Shown here one piece after another: positions 13,240 to 33,063 of a DNA stretch of 64,000 nucleotides (within the stretch, counting starts at the first letter, position 1; every line of letters starts with the position of its first letter). This stretch comes from Actinomycetota bacterium (GTDB lineage Bacteria > Actinomycetota > Acidimicrobiia > IMCC26256 > PALSA-555): positions 9,963 through 73,962 of the forward strand of contig PLJD01000015.1 of NCBI GenBank assembly GCA_003140175.1, in the 5' to 3' direction. The translations under genes and the position numbers were made by a program. The notes under the pieces are model-generated. The model made no database searches. It was not told where the DNA came from and was given only the letters and a program-made list of their open reading frames with translations.

Positions 13240-14214
13240 ATGTCTGTGCGCGACGAGGTCGCGCTGCCTCCTCAGGAACTGATCATCCGGGTCGGCGACG
13301 ATCCCGGGGACACCGTCGCCGAGTACCACGCCATCGGGGGCCGCCACCGCAAGCTCCTCGAGTCCTACTTGCCTCCAGACTGGGTGTGGTCCGACAAGAC
13401 CTACCTCGACTGGGGCGCCGGGGCAGGACGACTCGTCCGGCACTTCCTCGCCGAAGCGGAGACCAATCGGATCATCGGCGCGGACATCCACGAGCCGAGC
13501 GTTCAGTGGATCCGTGACCATCTCGCCCCGGTCGAGAGTGTCCTCGTCCACGAGGAGCCGGGAATCGATCTCGTCGCCAACAGCGTCGACTTTGTTAGCG
13601 GCTTCTCGGTGATGACCCACATCACCGACCATTGGGCCGGCTGGTTGCTCGAGATCCGCCGGGTGCTTCGGCCCGGCGGCCTGGCCCTGCTCTCCTTCTG
13701 CGGAGAAGCGATGATCCCCGTCCTCCTCGACGGCACCGAGCAGATCGACGACCTGGGGATGCTCGTCGTCAAGTACGGGAACCCGTGGCGCTTCGGCGGC
13801 CCGACGGTCCTGCACTCACCCTGGTGGATCCGCGCCCACTGGGGCCGCGCCTTCGACATCGTGCGGATCGATTCCGCTGCACTGCAGGGCGTCAAGACCG
13901 GTCACGACCTTGCCCTCTTGCAGAAGCCGTTCAGCGCACCAGCCTCCATCGAGGACCTCGAGGCGGTCGATCCAAGCGATGCCCGTGAGACGCGCGGGAC
14001 GATGACCGCGTTTCGCCACGCGCGGGCCGAGCTCTGCGAAGTGCGGGGCGACTACGAGGTCGCACGCGAGGAGGCCTATCACCAGCGCCTGCTCGCCGAA
14101 GATCGTGCACTCAAGCTTCACGTCGTCCAAACCAGCCACAGCTGGAAGATCACCCGGCCCCTCCGCGCGTTGACGAGCCGCTTCAATCCGACCGATGGAT
14201 GGAAGTTGGACTGA
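13240..14214 (+). CDS. class I SAM-dependent methyltransferase with C-terminal coiled-coil tail
   Basis: SAM motif I YLDWGAGAGR and post-I IIGADI. The C-terminal ~80 aa are heptad-like (RHARAELCEVRGDYEVAREEAYHQRLLAEDRALKL) and end in SWKITRPLRAL. Confidence 0.8.
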   Translation: MSVRDEVALPPQELIIRVGDDPGDTVAEYHAIGGRHRKLLESYLPPDWVWSDKTYLDWGAGAGRLVRHFLAEAETNRIIGADIHEPSVQWIRDHLAPVESVLVHEEPGIDLVANSVDFVSGFSVMTHITDHWAGWLLEIRRVLRPGGLALLSFCGEAMIPVLLDGTEQIDDLGMLVVKYGNPWRFGGPTVLHSPWWIRAHWGRAFDIVRIDSAALQGVKTGHDLALLQKPFSAPASIEDLEAVDPSDARETRGTMTAFRHARAELCEVRGDYEVAREEAYHQRLLAEDRALKLHVVQTSHSWKITRPLRALTSRFNPTDGWKLD

Positions 14215-14505
14215 GCGCGCCTGGTCGCCCGATGGCCTCTCGATCCGACGTGTCCCCGCACCGCAGGGAGTCGAATGCCGACCGAGCTTCGCTAACCCAC
14301 CCCGCGGCGCCCGGTGAACCCCGGGATCGGACATCGCTACCGGCGCGGCGGAACCCTCATCGGACGGCTGGATGCATCGTCTCGCACGTTGGCGCGCCGG
14401 CCCGTCGCATCGCCGACTCCAACCCCGAGTGGTGAGGCCTTCGCCGAGGCAGCACCGCACGGGTACGCTTCGCGTCGACCCCGCATCACCGAGCACCAAG
14501 AGCGC

Positions 14506-15105
14506 ATGACATTCTCCCGGGATTTCCTCAACGAGACGGTCGACATTCTGGCTGCCATACCGGACGCCGACGTCGAAGCAGTCGTCGAGGTCATTCGGTC
14601 GACCCGCGACCGAGGCGGACGCCTCTTCTTCTGTGGCTCTGGTGGCGGTGCGGGCCATGCCTCGCACGCCTCCTGCGACTTCCGGAAGTTAGCCGGGATC
14701 GAGTCGTACTCGGTGACGGACAACGTGTCGGAACTCACGGCTCGGATCAACGACGACGGCTGGGATACGTCGTATGCCGATTGGCTGGTTGCCTCTCGGC
14801 TCGGCGACCGGGACTGCATCTTCGTCTTCTCGGTCGGCGGGGGAGACGAGACCCACCAGATCAGCTCGAACCTGATCGCTGTGATGCGTCTGGCCAAGCG
14901 TGTCGGTGCCTCCCTGGTGGGTGTTGTCGGGAGAGACGGGGGCGTGCTCCGCCAGATGGCCGATGCGAGCATCGTGATCCCACAACTCAACCCTAAGCAT
15001 GTGACGCCGCAAACCGAGGGACTCCAAGCGTTGCTTTGGCACCTGATCGTCTCGCATCCAGCACTGGATCACGCGGTTGCGAAATGGGAATCGGTGTCGA
15101 GCTGA
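14506..15105 (+). CDS. gmhA: SIS-domain sedoheptulose-7-phosphate isomerase
   Basis: Starts at MTFSRDFLNETVD (ATG 14506). SIS blocks FFCGSGGGAGHASH and IFVFSVGGG. About 199 aa, as for GmhA. Lies with hddA/hddC/gmhB. Confidence 0.72.
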   Translation: MTFSRDFLNETVDILAAIPDADVEAVVEVIRSTRDRGGRLFFCGSGGGAGHASHASCDFRKLAGIESYSVTDNVSELTARINDDGWDTSYADWLVASRLGDRDCIFVFSVGGGDETHQISSNLIAVMRLAKRVGASLVGVVGRDGGVLRQMADASIVIPQLNPKHVTPQTEGLQALLWHLIVSHPALDHAVAKWESVSS

Positions 15106-30619: not shown

Positions 30620-31548
30620 CTGACGCTGGACTTCAAGGCCGCGTTCTCCTGGGACAGAGTCTGAGCTCTATGTGCCCAGTGTTCGCGCTCTTGCTCGAGC
30701 TTGGACTTGACCGAAAGCAGCAGCTCGTCGTGGGTCTCGAGCTCGAGTACCCGCTGCTTGAGTCCGGCGTGTGTCTCGACCGCGTCGTCGTGCTCCGCGA
30801 CGAACGACTGGTCGGCGTCCATGAAGACCGAGACGGTTCGAGCCAGCCGCTCATCGGTGCCGGTCGTCTCCCCACTGCAGATGGCAACGCAGAACTGCGG
30901 CGCCAGCGGTGATCCGTGTCCCTCTCGAGCCGGGCGGCTCGCGGGCACGGTGGTGGTCTCGAGCCGGAACGGTGCGCCGCGACCGTCGAGGGGCCATAAG
31001 GCTGAGGCGCTCACCACCCGTTGTCCGAGAATCGCGACGTGGGGAAACACCCGCTCAAGAAACTGGCGGAACTCGTCCAGATAGAACTCGTGTTCATGAA
31101 AATCATTGGTGAAGTCTCGCGAGTCCGAATACTCCTTGCGTTCGGGCGTGGAGATCACGAGCACACCGTCATCTCGCAGCAGTCGCCGCGCTTCAACGAG
31201 GGCCTCCTCCTGGCCGGTCACGTGCTCAATGGCCTCGAGGCACACCGCGAGGTCGAATTGGTTCCCGCGAAGTGGCGTGCGCCGAATGTCGCCACCCACG
31301 AAGCGCAGGTTGTCGCGCCGGTACTTGGTCGTCGCGTGGGCGAGCGCCTCCGAGTCGATCTCCACGCCGATCACGGACCGGGCGGCCTGGGAGAGGAGCT
31401 CCGAGCCGTACCCTTCTCCGCTCGCTAGGTCGACGACCCGCTTGCCGGTAGCTAGAGACTGGGCCAGGTGATACCGATGGGCGTGCTCATACAAGATCGC
31501 GGCGCCACCCTCGCCGGGGATGAACCGTTCACCTGTCCACTCGATCAT
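30553..31548 (-). CDS. class I SAM-dependent methyltransferase with C-terminal coiled-coil tail (WbdD-like architecture)
   Basis: VVDLASGEGYG SAM motif and CLEAIEHV. C-terminal heptad-like LKQRVLELETHDELLLSVKSKLEQEREHWAHRAQTLSQENAALKSS, then SWRVTRPLRAL. First gene of the MT-GT4-wzm-wzt string. Confidence 0.8.
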   Translation of the reverse strand: MIEWTGERFIPGEGGAAILYEHAHRYHLAQSLATGKRVVDLASGEGYGSELLSQAARSVIGVEIDSEALAHATTKYRRDNLRFVGGDIRRTPLRGNQFDLAVCLEAIEHVTGQEEALVEARRLLRDDGVLVISTPERKEYSDSRDFTNDFHEHEFYLDEFRQFLERVFPHVAILGQRVVSASALWPLDGRGAPFRLETTTVPASRPAREGHGSPLAPQFCVAICSGETTGTDERLARTVSVFMDADQSFVAEHDDAVETHAGLKQRVLELETHDELLLSVKSKLEQEREHWAHRAQTLSQENAALKSSVSWRVTRPLRALSRLRSWRPRAS

Positions 31549-31845
31549 TGAGCTCGCCTGTCTCGGCTCTCCTCACAGGAATTTCCAGCGTATTCGCAGG
31601 CTCCGGAGTCATGACAATCCGCAGCGTGACACGCCGAGGCCCCAGGAAACGGACGCCTTCGACACGGCCGTCGCGATCCCGTACACGCCGACGAACGCAT
31701 CCGCTGGGCACGTGCGCGCCTGACGGCCAACTCGGCTCACCACCCGCGCGAGGATGCCTCCACGGCGTCGCACCGACCGACGCCGGCTCCGCGCCCGTTA
31801 CGCTGCCCTTCCTGTGACGTCTCGTCCACGCCGGACCACCTCCTG

Positions 31846-33063
31846 ATGGGACTCGCACGCCGGAGCGCGACGCCGTTTCGCGCGGTCGCGTCCTGGATCC
31901 CACCCATCCATCGGCTCCGCAGCACCCGCGACGCGCTCGCCGTGCAGAATGCGGAGCTTCGGCACGAGCTCGAGCATCGCGCTTTCCCGGGCTCCTGGAT
32001 TCGGCACCACCCGTATGGACATCAACCAGCCGGCGACGCCGGGAGCGACGGCGTCGCGACCGCCGACGAGGACCGCGTCCTCGTGCAGCGGATTATCGAT
32101 GCCTACGCGCGGTCATTGGACGTCGACTACTACGAGGAAGACTCGTGGTGGCATGTCAATCGCCAGCACCTCACCGAGGTCGACAACGCCCTCGTGGCCC
32201 GAGACGTCGACGCCGTGACTCGGATCCTCCGCACGCCCATGGAGAACTCGTTGCTGTATGGGTACGAGCTGTTCGGGTCGGAGGCGACCCACTACGACGG
32301 GCAGCGCTGGCGTCAGGAACATGCGGATCGCTGCAAGGACTTGCTCATGCGACTAGCCGAGGCCTTGGGCACTCTCTCGTTGGAGAACCCGGAGGGCGGC
32401 CCCTGGGGCGAGAACATTGAGTTGTCTGCCGAGGAGGGCATCGCTCGGGTTGAGAAGGCGATGTCTATCTCGCTTCCGATTCGACCGGTGCAGCACGCCT
32501 TCCACGGCATCACGGCTCGGGGCGGCGTGATCACGGAACGGATGATTCACGCCGCGTACTGCGCCTACCGAGTCGCCCAGCTGCTCGCCGACACGCCGAA
32601 CCCGCGGGTGCTCGAGATCGGGGCGGGCCTGGGTTACACGGCCTATTACGCCGCGCAGCTCGGGGTTGGCAGTTACGAGATCGTCGACCTGCCGCTGACC
32701 AACGTCGCGCAGGCCTACTTCCTGGGTCGCAGTCTCGGGCCTGATCGCATCGTTCTCGAAGGCGAGGGGCGCCCAGCCGACATGAGTGACGGGGTCACGA
32801 TTCGCACCCCGCGGGCGATCCTCGAACCTCGAGCGCCCGTCGATCTGGTCATGAACGTCGACTCGTTGACCGAGGTGGGGGTCGCGCAGGCGTCTCGCTA
32901 CGCCGATTGGATCCTGGAGATCGCCCCCCTCTTCCTCAGCATCAACCACGAGGCCAACGCGTACCGGGTGCTCGACTTGTTCACCGCTCGGGGGGCCCGG
33001 ATCGAGCGCTTCCCGTACTGGCTGCGCGTCGGGTACGTCGAGGAGATCATCCGCGCTCGGTAG
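31846..33063 (+). CDS. putative sugar O-methyltransferase (SAM-dependent)
   Basis: VLEIGAGLGYTAYYAA motif I and EIVDLP motif II in the C-terminal half. The N-terminal ~220 aa are unassigned. No SD before ATG 31846, so the start is uncertain. Confidence 0.6.
   Translation: MGLARRSATPFRAVASWIPPIHRLRSTRDALAVQNAELRHELEHRAFPGSWIRHHPYGHQPAGDAGSDGVATADEDRVLVQRIIDAYARSLDVDYYEEDSWWHVNRQHLTEVDNALVARDVDAVTRILRTPMENSLLYGYELFGSEATHYDGQRWRQEHADRCKDLLMRLAEALGTLSLENPEGGPWGENIELSAEEGIARVEKAMSISLPIRPVQHAFHGITARGGVITERMIHAAYCAYRVAQLLADTPNPRVLEIGAGLGYTAYYAAQLGVGSYEIVDLPLTNVAQAYFLGRSLGPDRIVLEGEGRPADMSDGVTIRTPRAILEPRAPVDLVMNVDSLTEVGVAQASRYADWILEIAPLFLSINHEANAYRVLDLFTARGARIERFPYWLRVGYVEEIIRAR

Follow-up and report, generated by a model that had tools for sequence, protein, structure and literature searches.

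Export of a polysaccharide by an ABC transporter, combined with its extracytoplasmic decoration by a GT-C glycosyltransferase, is known from the streptococcal rhamnopolysaccharides and mycobacterial arabinogalactan. The combination has been described in Gram-positive bacteria (PMC8035078), where decoration of wall polymers by a GT2, a flippase and a GT-C enzyme is an established logic (PMC8035078, PMC7389260). YfhO-family enzymes modify LTA (PMC7389260) and YfhO-like Pgf enzymes are reported to modify proteins, namely streptococcal adhesins (bioRxiv 10.1101/2022.10.10.511621). With respect to unusual sugars, GmhA/HddA-like enzymes are used in actinomycete natural products (PMC9978623), whilst the Lmb enzymes of the lincomycin route have been tabulated (PMC4351081, PMC12945683) and the LmbR reaction described (PMC5854111).

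The window analysed here, a 64,000-nucleotide stretch of DNA from an actinobacterium of the class Acidimicrobiia, contains a surface sugar-polymer island that is more likely to consist of two joined modules than to specify one heptose-based polymer, the product to which an earlier note had assigned all of its genes. GC3 frame analysis resolved 13240-33063 into exactly 18 genes, and these belong to glycan-type families, in agreement with that note's delineation of the locus. The island lies inside a dip in GC content (from ~0.74 to ~0.65 across about 13-36 kb) and is flanked by menaquinone genes (a men/UbiA neighbourhood). As at least 23 public metagenome contigs carry the locus in identical form, an assembly artefact can be ruled out. 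Two further genes, encoding an iron-sulfur protein and a MarR regulator (33210..34491), fall within the same low-GC stretch; any connection to the glycan genes is putative. The features are as follows:

g1, 13240..14214, +: SAM methyltransferase (Pfam Methyltransf_11), C-terminal helix and SHSWKITRPLRAL tail, the latter homologous to that of g17 and matching the tail profile
g2, 14314..15105 (probable start 14521), +: divergent GmhA-type SIS ketose/aldose-phosphate isomerase (NCBIfam, PDB)
g3, 15077..16159, +: extended SDR, GalE-like nucleotide-sugar 4-epimerase class (Pfam Epimerase, 182 bits; PDB 3ehe, 256 bits)
g4, 16412..17383, +: GHMP anomeric sugar-phosphate kinase, HddA/WcbL-like (NCBIfam, PDB)
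g5, 17386..18090, +: sugar-1-phosphate nucleotidyltransferase, HddC/MurU-like (Pfam NTP_transferase)
g6, 18127..19008, +: SAM methyltransferase (Pfam Methyltransf_23, 102 bits), N-terminal CxxC...CxxC motif
g7, 18966..19853 (probable start 19745), -: GT2, polyprenyl-phosphate-sugar synthase type (Pfam GT2, 99 bits)
g8, 20058..22565, -: YfhO-family GT-C membrane glycosyltransferase (Pfam YfhO, 66.5 bits vs GA 28.5)
g9, 22784..23347, +: HAD-IIIA sugar-bisphosphate phosphatase, GmhB-like (passes TIGR01656 and TIGR01662)
g10, 23484..24218 (probable start 24197), -: small transaldolase (TIGR02134)
g11, 24355..25236, +: classical SDR oxidoreductase (Pfam adh_short, 146 bits)
g12, 25233..26231, +: Gfo/Idh/MocA sugar dehydrogenase or ketoreductase (Pfam; PDB relatives)
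g13, 26228..27103, +: SAM methyltransferase (Pfam Methyltransf_23, 96 bits)
g14, 27170..28435, -: Wzt ABC ATPase with C-terminal Wzt_C carbohydrate-binding-type domain (Pfam ABC_tran and Wzt_C)
g15, 28439..29251, -: Wzm ABC-2 permease (Pfam ABC2_membrane; six TM segments)
g16, 29255..30619 (probable start 30523, giving 422 aa), -: single-domain GT-B, GT4-like (retaining-type) cytoplasmic glycosyltransferase (AF2, Foldseek)
g17, 30553..31548, -: SAM methyltransferase (Pfam Methyltransf_11), ~60-residue helical stalk (predicted helix) and SVSWRVTRPLRAL tail
g18, 31846..33063, +: protein of 405 aa and uncertain function, with a faint class-I methyltransferase motif (233-360)
33210-33911, -: zf-CDGSH/Fer4_19 iron-sulfur protein (gene calls and Pfam on identical contigs)
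33943-34491, -: MarR regulator (Pfam MarR)

Genes g17, g16, g15 and g14 are spaced by 29, 3 and 3 nt, indicative of a single operon, which together with g1, and perhaps g18, would make up module A. Gaps of 3 nt or overlaps had been reported throughout this string; this holds for the last two junctions, whilst the first is either a 29-nt gap or, with the longest g16 ORF, a 67-nt overlap. The Wzt_C domain of g14 scored 69 bits against a Pfam GA of 30.4, and residues 11-405 of the protein align with full-length Aquifex Wzt (7k2t/8dku); searched alone by sequence, the domain returned no solved homologue. For g15 the top NCBIfam match was the galactan Wzm. Although the sequence score of g16 was under the Pfam GA, AF2 predicts for it (pLDDT 87.5) a GT-B fold nearest to GT4 enzymes, the best Foldseek matches being MshA, WaaG, GlgM, BshA and PimB'; the family has more than 3000 members, and g16 is presumed to be the chain builder. 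Directly upstream, g17 contains a long, confident helix at ~250-310 (pLDDT 71-97), and its basic/aromatic, conserved C-terminal tail is common to g1 and g17. The Wzm/Wzt, GT4 and coiled-coil methyltransferase of the earlier note are therefore all recovered. The methyltransferase domain of g17 has a generic class-I fold in which no homology to WbdD was detectable, such that the likeness to the E. coli O8/O9a system, whose logic had been said to be copied here, is one of analogy; g17 is a candidate chain modifier or terminator. For g18, a NanM-like NCBIfam match reached 29 bits against a cut-off of 44, Pfam MT_23 matched at E 0.012 with a faint motif-I match, and PDB matches to PIMT were faint only. 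Hence, of the five SAM methyltransferases originally counted, g1, g6, g13 and g17 are firm and g18 is faint.

The remaining genes, g2-g6, g7, g8 and g9-g13, would constitute module B, which is a portable sugar-nucleotide cassette accompanied by tailoring enzymes. When g2, g4, g5 and g9 were tested against curated NCBIfam equivalog cut-offs, all four fell far below: g2 scored 46 bits for gmhA (cut-off 209), g4 136 bits for its top match HddA (cut-off 600), g5 96 bits for MurU and 87.5 bits for HddC (both under the cut-offs, that of HddC being 300) and g9 86-111 bits for the GmhB models (cut-offs 150-250). The SIS score of g2 was also below the Pfam GA (24 vs 27 bits) and its nearest PDB matches are all GmhA; the nearest solved structures to g4 are heptose-7-P kinases (4usm/4usk/3k85/4n3o, E 1e-29 to 1e-32). 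The isomerase falls into a subfamily of its own, with a His/Asp/Glu/His signature, six extra residues in the phosphate-binding loop, and Glu-to-Asp and Gln-to-Glu changes, departing from GmhA at catalytic/metal positions as well as in that loop. What had been described as a GDP-heptose supply line thus stands as a GmhA/HddA/GmhB/HddC-like pathway with a transaldolase, yet profile HMMs, which upheld Wzt_C, place none of these four enzymes above its equivalog cut-off. The transaldolase, g10, passes TIGR02134, a housekeeping-type model (289 bits, cut-off 282). Amongst 30 transaldolase-containing loci, SIS was found in 29, HAD in 28, GHMP in 27 and NTP in 26, and NTP::SIS, HAD::SIS, TAL::SIS and SIS::GHMP fusions occur among cassette representatives. 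Given the SIS linkage and the TAL::SIS fusions, the transaldolase is an integral cassette member, not the add-on to a heptose line that it had seemed. As it is likewise integral to the lincomycin GDP-octose route, the product may be a 7- or 8-carbon sugar, with the octose route fitting as well as the heptose route.

Amongst the other module B proteins, g7 has AglJ, Dol-P-hexose transferase and ArnC as top NCBIfam matches, all below cut-offs, and a TM scan revealed no TM segment in it. YfhO matches at both ends of g8, together with at least eight TM segments and a large soluble domain, correspond to YfhO topology. Genes g11, g12 and g13 are translationally coupled by 4-nt overlaps, and Gfo/Idh/MocA genes of the g12 type are present in 18-19 of the 30 cassette loci. 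The extended SDR epimerase (g3), the SDR and Gfo/Idh/MocA pair (g11, g12) and the GT2 and YfhO pair (g7, g8) proposed earlier are all borne out by these family matches.

Comparison with other genomes separated the two modules. In the closest relatives, L007 and L008, [MT]-GT4-Wzm-Wzt occupies the same men/UbiA neighbourhood at a GC content lower than that of the flanks, and no cassette, GT2 or YfhO was found within the ±10 kb examined. Identity to the window is 76 % for the GT, 80 % for Wzm and 84 % for Wzt in L007, and 60-74 % in L008 (60 % for the GT4); within the shared neighbourhood, the position of module A differs among all three. Module A without module B was also found in dozens of Actinomycetota, a g16-type GT is accompanied by Wzm/Wzt in about 37-50 of the related loci, and the CBD was covered in 34 of 48 Wzt matches. 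Conversely, L088 has the same module B gene order with GT2 and YfhO, including a g13 homologue (60 % identical) in the same position, and no module A within ±10 kb. The closest cassette relative, L089, contains an MT::GT2 fusion (its methyltransferase a g6 homologue), YfhO, a g16-type GT and an ABC ATPase, and YfhO is also present at the cassette locus L160. In L010 and L159 the cassette adjoins GT/Wzm/Wzt with no YfhO, and a DegT aminotransferase lies near it in L010. Synteny thus does not bear out the single glycan to which the earlier note assigned all 18 genes. No characterized counterpart of the locus was found in close relatives, as that note had anticipated.

On balance we lean towards a composite island, in which two recurrent glycan-assembly modules cooperate on one envelope polymer. 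The soluble, GT4-fold g16 would elongate a polyprenyl-diphosphate-linked chain in the cytoplasm, probably from an ordinary nucleotide sugar, and the tailed, helical-stalk methyltransferases would modify it, probably at the non-reducing end. By analogy, the chain is probably methyl-capped, with the modified terminus bound by the C-terminal domain of Wzt during export through Wzm/Wzt. In module B, the transaldolase, GmhA-like isomerase, anomeric GHMP kinase, HAD phosphatase and nucleotidyltransferase would act in that order to produce an NDP-activated 7-carbon or 8-carbon aldose, which the GalE-like epimerase, the SDR and Gfo redox pair and the Methyltransf_23 enzymes may then tailor. GT2 would load this sugar onto polyprenyl phosphate and, after flipping, YfhO would add it outside the membrane, either to the exported polymer, forming a side-branch, or to another envelope acceptor. 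The family and fold assignments, the operon, the separable modules, the coherent cassette and the variability of the island are observed, whereas we infer all substrates in this scheme, the methyl cap, its binding by Wzt, the YfhO acceptor and the machinery that uses the special sugar. The island encodes no GtrA/GtcA-type flippase, initiating phosphoglycosyl transferase or LCP ligase, so the pathway would require genes from elsewhere. For the assembly of a complete polymer, a single GT4 domain would be a small complement.

That same single GT would suit a homopolymer, and hence one heptose-based polymer capped by the coiled-coil methyltransferase and exported by Wzm/Wzt, with GT2 and YfhO adding only a common hexose side-branch. 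GmhA, HddA, GmhB and HddC are top matches of g2, g4, g9 and g5 (for g5 beside MurU), no other nucleotide-sugar pathway is encoded in the island, and in L010 and L159 the cassette sits directly beside GT-Wzt-Wzm. We nevertheless regard this as unlikely: the related GT4 enzymes of L007 and L008 accompany Wzm/Wzt with no cassette nearby, the closest cassette relatives accompany GT2 and YfhO, and both the missed equivalog cut-offs and the altered isomerase count against it. The separate occurrence of the modules, and the differing slot of module A, could also mean that they work independently of each other, as neighbours at a hot spot of recombination, A producing a methylated wall polysaccharide and B glycosylating lipoglycan or secreted proteins through YfhO, in keeping with the LTA and protein modification cited above. 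The co-occurrence of A and B in L089, and their union in one contiguous low-GC island here, make this quite improbable. Far more remote is a secondary-metabolite cluster for a heptose or octose antibiotic of the hygromycin B, septacidin or lincosamide type; GmhA/HddA-like enzymes and LmbR-type transaldolases do serve actinomycete natural products, but the island encodes a CBD-bearing Wzt with its Wzm, a YfhO GT-C and a GT2 of the polyprenyl-P-sugar type, it lacks aglycone, NRPS, PKS, cyclitol and resistance genes, and the cassette recurs widely across environmental loci of glycan type.

The identity of the sugar is a separate matter, and an NDP-octose made by a lincomycin-type route, compatible with either architecture, is possible if somewhat doubtful. 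Here, ribose-5-P and a C3 unit would be joined by the transaldolase to octulose-8-P, followed by SIS isomerization, then kinase, phosphatase and nucleotidyltransferase steps to NDP-octose, and tailoring by the epimerase and Gfo-type enzymes. The enzyme set corresponds to LmbR/N/P/K/O with LmbM and LmbL/Z, matched by tabulated functions, and the DegT aminotransferase near the L010 cassette would be an LmbS analogue. In addition, the cassette hardly ever occurs without the transaldolase, which is at times fused to the isomerase and goes unmentioned in the top-ranked literature naming the classical GDP-heptose genes, and the isomerase carries the loop insertion and substitutions noted above. On the other hand, g10 passes a housekeeping-type model and may simply supply sedoheptulose-7-P, duplicated supply enzymes being common in glycan loci, and we know of no octose in any bacterial envelope polymer.

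Returning to the two cooperating modules, module A stands alone in relatives and the cassette, in its nearest relatives, is accompanied by GT2 and YfhO; a decoration, added via polyprenyl phosphate and YfhO, is thus a likelier role for the special sugar than a place in the backbone, whilst L010 and L159 imply that it can also feed a cytoplasmic GT/ABC route. Such a pairing of ABC export with extracytoplasmic GT-C decoration is not new here, and follows a logic already known in Gram-positive bacteria.

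The 18 consecutive genes at 13240–33063 (here g1–g18, in order) were recovered by GC3-based frame analysis with the same coordinates as in an earlier note on this DNA, and profile searches bore out most of the glycan functions assigned to them there. At least 23 contigs in public metagenomes carry the identical locus, which lies where the GC content, ∼74 % for the window, dips to 0.63–0.68 (about 13–36 kb). Intergenic gaps along g17-g16-g15-g14 are 29, 3 and 3 nt, and g11-g12-g13 show successive overlaps of 4 nt each. The upstream flank consists of menaquinone genes (a MenE-like ligase, MenB, MenD and a UbiE-type methylase); MenD passed its equivalog model (450 against a cut-off of 244), and the closest named homologues of MenB, at 84–88 % identity, are all from Acidimicrobiia MAGs, which places the host in the class Acidimicrobiia and outside the classical cultured high-GC genera. 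Downstream are a flavin reductase, a MenA-like UbiA prenyltransferase, a diglucosyl-DAG-synthase-like glycosyltransferase (GT), a polysaccharide deacetylase and carotenoid-glycoside-type genes. No tRNA, integrase or flanking direct repeat was found at the island borders inspected. That the 18-gene locus is an envelope-glycan island we hold with high confidence.

Several other features were observed to the right of the 18 genes. At 33210–33911, beside a MarR regulator and still in the low-GC stretch, lies a gene for a 233 aa protein with Fer4_19 between two zf-CDGSH motifs, for which we found no evident connection to the glycan genes. The flavin-reductase gene has its 5′ end and upstream region directly duplicated over ∼186 nt (34563–34748 versus 34862–35049, 80–91 % identity, ∼300 nt apart), and the remnant of a gene is thereby left between it and MarR. 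Three tandem 72 nt repeats at 35717–35917 (96 and 71 % identity to the first copy) fall within a ∼190-residue N-terminal extension, itself without a Pfam domain, of the MenA-like UbiA-family gene (35664–37094). Further on, 37168–44369 carries the diglucosyl-DAG-synthase-like GT (605 aa), the polysaccharide deacetylase, an EamA transporter, a GT2 (523 aa) and a CrtO-like glycosyl-carotenoid acyltransferase, and looks like a glycolipid or carotenoid-glycoside neighbourhood.

The genes g17-g16-g15-g14 encode a methyltransferase, a GT, Wzm and Wzt and, with g1 and perhaps g18, make up what we term module A. The Wzm/Wzt assignment, including the C-terminal carbohydrate-binding-type domain (CBD) of Wzt, held up: g15 scored 67.8 bits against 26.9 for Pfam ABC2_membrane and has six transmembrane segments, whilst g14 scored 73 bits for ABC_tran and 69.3 against 30.4 for Wzt_C, and its residues 11–405 align with the full-length Aquifex WzmWzt ATPase (7k2t/8dku; E-value 1e-65). 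The isolated C-terminal domain of g14 gave no PDB match by sequence search, and the top NCBIfam Wzm/Wzt models for both proteins were those of the mycobacterial galactan exporter. For g16, which scored under the Pfam GT1-group (GA) thresholds and found no PDB relative by sequence search, an AlphaFold (AF2) model built from 18 homologues (pLDDT 87.5) has a GT-B fold, the nearest Foldseek structures being retaining GT4 enzymes such as MshA, WaaG, GlgM, BshA and PimB′ (E-value 1e-14 to 1e-9). The modelled fold is closest to those of CAZy GT4 (retaining GT-B) enzymes, in keeping with the earlier GT4 call.

Four of five proposed methyltransferases (g1, g6, g13 and g17) were confirmed by profile search (Pfam, NCBIfam); the fifth, g18, returned a NanM-like match of only 29 bits (cut-off 44) and faint motif-I matches. 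The g17 protein has a generic class-I methyltransferase domain followed by a helical stalk of ∼60 aa (residues ∼250–310, pLDDT 71–97 in AF2), and g1 is also stalked. As the g17 helix comes from a single-chain, single-sequence model, it is to be read as a helix and cannot show oligomerization; a crude heptad score used as a coiled-coil test picked g17 but gave false positives in Wzt, and was set aside in favour of the AF2 helix. Neither g17 nor g1 has detectable homology to WbdD, the latter being absent from PDB sequence matches at E ≤ 0.01, and the resemblance of the g17 stalk to WbdD is one of analogy, not of family membership. At its N terminus (18127–18230), g6 carries a CxxC...CxxC zinc-ribbon-like motif (MRCKICQSEM...HCEVCQ).

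The two stalked methyltransferases share a C-terminal tail, SxSW(R/K)(I/V)TRPLRAL, which we also located in related loci from other genomes (L numbers). The window tails and the other tailed genes are:

14160–14200, tail of g1 in the window
30565–30610, tail of g17 in the window
L045:1328–2839, tailed gene in Leifsonia
L074:9932–11293 and L074:981–2024, tailed genes in Lacisediminihabitans
L061:11351–12334, tailed gene
L159:8030–9193, tailed gene
L084:7825–8439, tailed gene

In its general build, the tail opens with an amphipathic helix, after which come S-x-S-W-[RK]-x-T-x-P-[LIV]-R and basic residues, and no Pfam model matches it. It ends g16-type GTs in Leifsonia and Lacisediminihabitans, and is also present on lookalikes of TylF/CmcI-type methyltransferases (L061, L159) and of one DUF616-type GT (L074), labels that denote motifs recognized by eye rather than by profile. 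Because it is present on several kinds of protein in related loci, the tail is, judged by its sequence distribution, a portable element attached to unrelated catalytic domains (GTs and methyltransferases) encoded in Wzm/Wzt loci. Its role may lie in membrane anchoring or complex docking, much as the WbdD C terminus does, and so organize polymerase and terminator.

The remaining genes form module B, comprising a sugar cassette with tailoring enzymes (g2–g6, g9–g13), a GT2 (g7) and a YfhO protein (g8). Profile searches confirmed the g4 GHMP kinase, g5 NTP-transferase, g9 HAD-IIIA phosphatase, g11 SDR and g12 Gfo/Idh/MocA protein (Pfam, NCBIfam), as well as the extended SDR g3, which is GalE-like (256 bits to PDB 3ehe), and the g10 transaldolase (TIGR02134, 289 bits; cut-off 282). 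The transaldolase has many homologues of 65–76 % identity in environmental Actinomycetota, the matches being unnamed or labelled simply ‘transaldolase’. What was not borne out as proposed was a complete GDP-manno-heptose supply line. The g2 isomerase fell under the Pfam SIS_2 threshold, and its sole solved relatives are phosphoheptose isomerases (GmhA), yet it scored 46.5 bits against 209 for TIGR00441 and 31–37 against 265–320 for other GmhA models; g4 reached 136 bits against 600 for HddA (NF049969), although this was its top match and its closest PDB relatives are HddA/WcbL; g9 reached 86–111 bits for GmhB models with cut-offs of 150–250; and g5 reached 87.5 bits against 300 for HddC, with MurU higher at 96.

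Across the 30 transaldolase-anchored loci that reach 9 kb, the transaldolase was joined by the SIS isomerase (29 loci), HAD (28), GHMP (27) and the NTP-transferase (26), and less often by the g3-like SDR (22), Gfo (18) and SDR (16). With g2 as query, an exhaustive search yielded 256 representative clusters (E ≤ 1e-30), of which the best 150 included fusions of the types NTP::SIS (14), HAD::SIS or SIS::HAD (11) and TAL::SIS or SIS::TAL (three), as well as SIS::GHMP. Because of this co-occurrence and these domain fusions, we read the five cassette enzymes as a single pathway in which the transaldolase is integral and not accessory. Together with 54 homologues (L010, L087–L169), g2 (14521–15105) forms a distinct GmhA-like SIS subfamily linked to the transaldolase. 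Its members have invariant His/Asp/Glu/His at the positions of Burkholderia GmhA His64/Glu68/Gln175/His183 (literature numbering placed on the 2xbl alignment, the Glu being catalytic) and a conserved six-residue insertion in the phosphate-binding loop, SVGGG(D/N)xExN(I/V)SPN, compared with STSG------KSPN in GmhA.

In order to compare gene neighbourhoods, two sets of loci were used, one anchored on g16 and the other on g10. The GT family to which g16 belongs numbers over 3000 proteins in Actinomycetota. Wzm/Wzt accompanied a g16-type GT in about 50 of 80 reference-genome GT loci by tblastn; for the 63 loci that reach 9 kb, an iterated profile put the figure at 37. The GT2 and GT4 profiles turned generic on iteration (234 and 250 matches), and we draw no specific claims from them. 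Wzt matches extended through the CBD in 34 of 48 cases. Sugar-pathway genes occurred in only one GT-anchored locus, that of a distant Actinomycetota MAG (L010). There (L010:8371–10965) an 864 aa GT2::GT4 fusion has the g16-type domain as its C-terminal half. Its neighbours are Wzm/Wzt, the sugar cassette and a DegT aminotransferase, so that the same parts give another polymerase design, one with two domains.

The two closest relatives were decisive. In L007, which matches the window at 76 % (GT), 80 % (Wzm) and 84 % (Wzt) identity and adjoins MenD-MenB-MenE, the glycan genes are GT-Wzm-Wzt only, with a ∼50-residue remnant of g17 just upstream (L007:9661–9821) that suggests a glycan hot spot beside the men genes in which DNA was deleted or rearranged. 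In L008 (60–74 % identity), the window's flank genes UbiE, MerR, ECH and a 256 aa protein stand nearly adjacent to the flavin reductase and UbiA, and a compact methyltransferase, GT, Wzm and Wzt set lies one slot from that junction. The GT/Wzm/Wzt set is lower in GC than its surroundings in both. From these two loci, module A (methyltransferase, GT4, Wzm and CBD-bearing Wzt) is the core system of the clade, cassette-free within the L007 and L008 DNA covered. Conversely, L088 has g3, g2, g4, g5, g8, g7, g13, g12, g11 and g10 in the window's order at 53–71 % identity, and module A is absent within ±10 kb of it. YfhO is present in the three closest cassette loci (L088, L089 and L160) and Wzm/Wzt accompany the cassette in L159 and L010, whilst L089 has both, like the window. 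In L089 the g6-type methyltransferase is fused to a GT2, which hints at methylation at the nucleotide-sugar or lipid-sugar stage. The synteny comparison shows two separable modules, and the single heptose-based glycan of the earlier note is not borne out as proposed.

We lean, at somewhat better than even confidence, towards a model in which module B decorates a polymer made by module A. The g16 enzyme would elongate a lipid-linked chain in the cytoplasm, its donor probably being an ordinary nucleotide sugar since the 76 %-identical enzyme sits in a genome region without the cassette. The chain would be methylated by g17, and probably by g1 too, and exported by Wzm/Wzt. Reading of a terminal methyl group by the Wzt CBD is the established O8/O9a paradigm, and by analogy a methyl cap and its recognition are plausible here. 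No initiating transferase, flippase or ligase is encoded in the island. In the second arm, the transaldolase, GmhA-like isomerase, anomeric kinase and phosphatase would act in that order towards an NDP-sugar, to be tailored by the GalE-like epimerase, the SDR and Gfo redox pair and the Methyltransf_23 enzymes.

The GT2 and YfhO pair noticed earlier was recovered by profile search. The g8 protein matched YfhO (PF09586) at 66.5 bits against 28.5, with an additional N-terminal match, and is polytopic, having at least eight transmembrane segments and a large domain that we read as extracytoplasmic. The GT2 domain of g7 is firm and without a transmembrane helix; its top NCBIfam matches (AglJ, Dol-P-hexose transferase, ArnC and PpgS) were all under their cut-offs. 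No GtrA/GtcA-type small flippase was detected, the polytopic ORFs in 12.5–36 kb being only Wzm, YfhO and the UbiA-family protein. We propose that g7 would load the NDP-sugar product onto polyprenyl-phosphate and that g8 would join the sugar to its acceptor outside the membrane, following the multi-component transmembrane glycosylation logic of a GT2, a flippase and a GT-C (PMC8035078, PMC7389260).

As to which sugar the cassette makes, a heptose, possibly a non-manno isomer, has about an even chance or slightly better. GmhA, HddA, GmhB and HddC are the top matches of g2, g4, g9 and g5, but all four fall far under the curated equivalog cut-offs and the isomerase subfamily is distinct in its active-site residues and insertion. 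A transaldolase goes unmentioned in the top-ranked literature naming the classical GDP-heptose genes, whose pathway shares with the cassette four enzyme families in the same presumed order and differs from it in the Asp/Glu for Glu/Gln replacements, the 6 aa loop insertion and the obligatory transaldolase. Tailoring, by GalE-like, SDR and Gfo enzymes, is also unlike the cupin/SDR set of Campylobacter heptose (PMC10680097). The GDP-octose route of lincomycin and celesticetin is the sole characterized pathway with exactly the same set of enzyme families, and in it the LmbR transaldolase makes octulose-8-phosphate from ribose-5-phosphate and a C3 donor (PMC4351081, PMC12945683, PMC5854111). At the family level, the transaldolase, isomerase, kinase, phosphatase and nucleotidyltransferase correspond to the Lmb-type set listed in PMC4351081, and the likeness, dedicated transaldolase included, holds when family lists are compared (PMC4351081 Table 2, PMC12945683 Table 1, PMC5854111). 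An octose is rather unlikely in our estimate, and the remaining probability goes to some other product. The lincomycin route differs in that it yields an antibiotic amino-octose and not a polymer, and the island is without NRPS, mycothiol and resistance genes; a secondary-metabolite cluster was considered and rejected for want of aglycone or resistance genes. The cassette is best described as related to, yet distinct from, the classical GDP-heptose pathway and, in its enzyme families, as identical to the Lmb octose pathway. A broader proposal, which we regard as doubtful, is that the cassette represents a widespread, undescribed route to an NDP-octose or other non-classical higher-carbon sugar, paralleling LmbR/N/P/K/O, with its product destined for envelope glycans of Acidimicrobiia and other environmental bacteria, here attached, by way of polyprenyl-phosphate and YfhO, to a methyl-capped polymer that the ABC transporter exports.

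Amongst known systems, the E. coli O8/O9a and Klebsiella O3/O5 antigens (WbdA/B/C, WbdD, Wzm/Wzt-CBD) share with the island cytoplasmic GT4-type synthesis, a stalked methyltransferase beside the GT and a Wzt with a C-terminal CBD-type domain. The export half of the O8/O9a logic invoked in the earlier note thus appears to work alike here, with a methyl cap plausible by analogy, whereas membership of g17 in the WbdD family does not hold. The island differs in having a single one-domain GT, a stalk of ∼60 residues and no WbdD relative, and in its monoderm actinobacterial envelope type, extra GT2/YfhO branch and special-sugar cassette. The Geobacillus stearothermophilus NRS 2004/3a S-layer glycan (WsaC–F, WsaE methyl cap, Wzm/Wzt) is Gram-positive, ABC-dependent and O-methyl-terminated; its rhamnan, multidomain MT-GT terminator and oligosaccharyl:protein transferase are all lacking from the island, although L089 has WsaF-type GT domains. 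Streptococcal and lactococcal rhamnose-polysaccharides (for example Group A carbohydrate GacA–L) and mycobacterial arabinogalactan (GlfT1/2, Wzm/Wzt Rv3781/3783, GT-C arabinosyltransferases) are built on the architecture proposed here. In that scheme a backbone made in the cytoplasm is exported by an ABC-2 transporter and decorated outside by a GT-C from a GT2-made polyprenyl-phosphate sugar (PMC8035078). Relative to these, the island has other GT families and sugars, a CBD on Wzt, stalked methyltransferases, a decoration sugar that would come from a transaldolase-dependent C7/C8 cassette, and no flippase or ligase gene. With the Bacillus and Listeria systems of CsbB/GtlA (GT2), GtcA (flippase) and YfhO/GtlB it shares a GT2, putatively of the polyprenyl-phosphate-sugar-synthase type, beside a YfhO GT-C; unlike CsbB/GtrB, g7 is without C-terminal transmembrane helices and more DPM1/Ppm-like, there is no GtcA-like gene, and in place of GlcNAc, Gal or Glc a rare higher-carbon sugar is presumably donated.

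The export logic (O8/O9a) and the decoration logic (CsbB/GtcA/YfhO) are thus already known. Our searches on actinobacterial heptose or O-methyl wall glycans and on transaldolases in heptose clusters found nothing relevant, and the suggestion that the locus is without a described counterpart stands in that no characterized one was found in relatives or in the literature searched. To our knowledge, three things are undescribed in that literature: a portable sugar-nucleotide cassette with an integral transaldolase and a signature isomerase (His/Asp/Glu/His, SVGGG..N.SPN), the coupling of this cassette to GT2/YfhO, and a portable ‘helix + SxSW(R/K)xTxPxR’ tail that Wzm/Wzt loci have on both GTs and methyltransferases. 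Further work is best directed at the cassette, with its signature isomerase, and at the shared tail. Were the octose reading true, it would suggest envelope glycan metabolism as the source from which an antibiotic pathway was recruited and would link lincosamide sugar biosynthesis to primary envelope metabolism; the polymer would also be a first, as we know of no octose-containing bacterial surface polymer so far. Acidimicrobiia are abundant actinomycetotes of soil, water and sludge, and we know of no characterized envelope glycan from them; the island offers a concrete, testable model of one, assembled from parts of known logic, namely export by an ABC transporter whose Wzt reads the cap and decoration by a GT-C.
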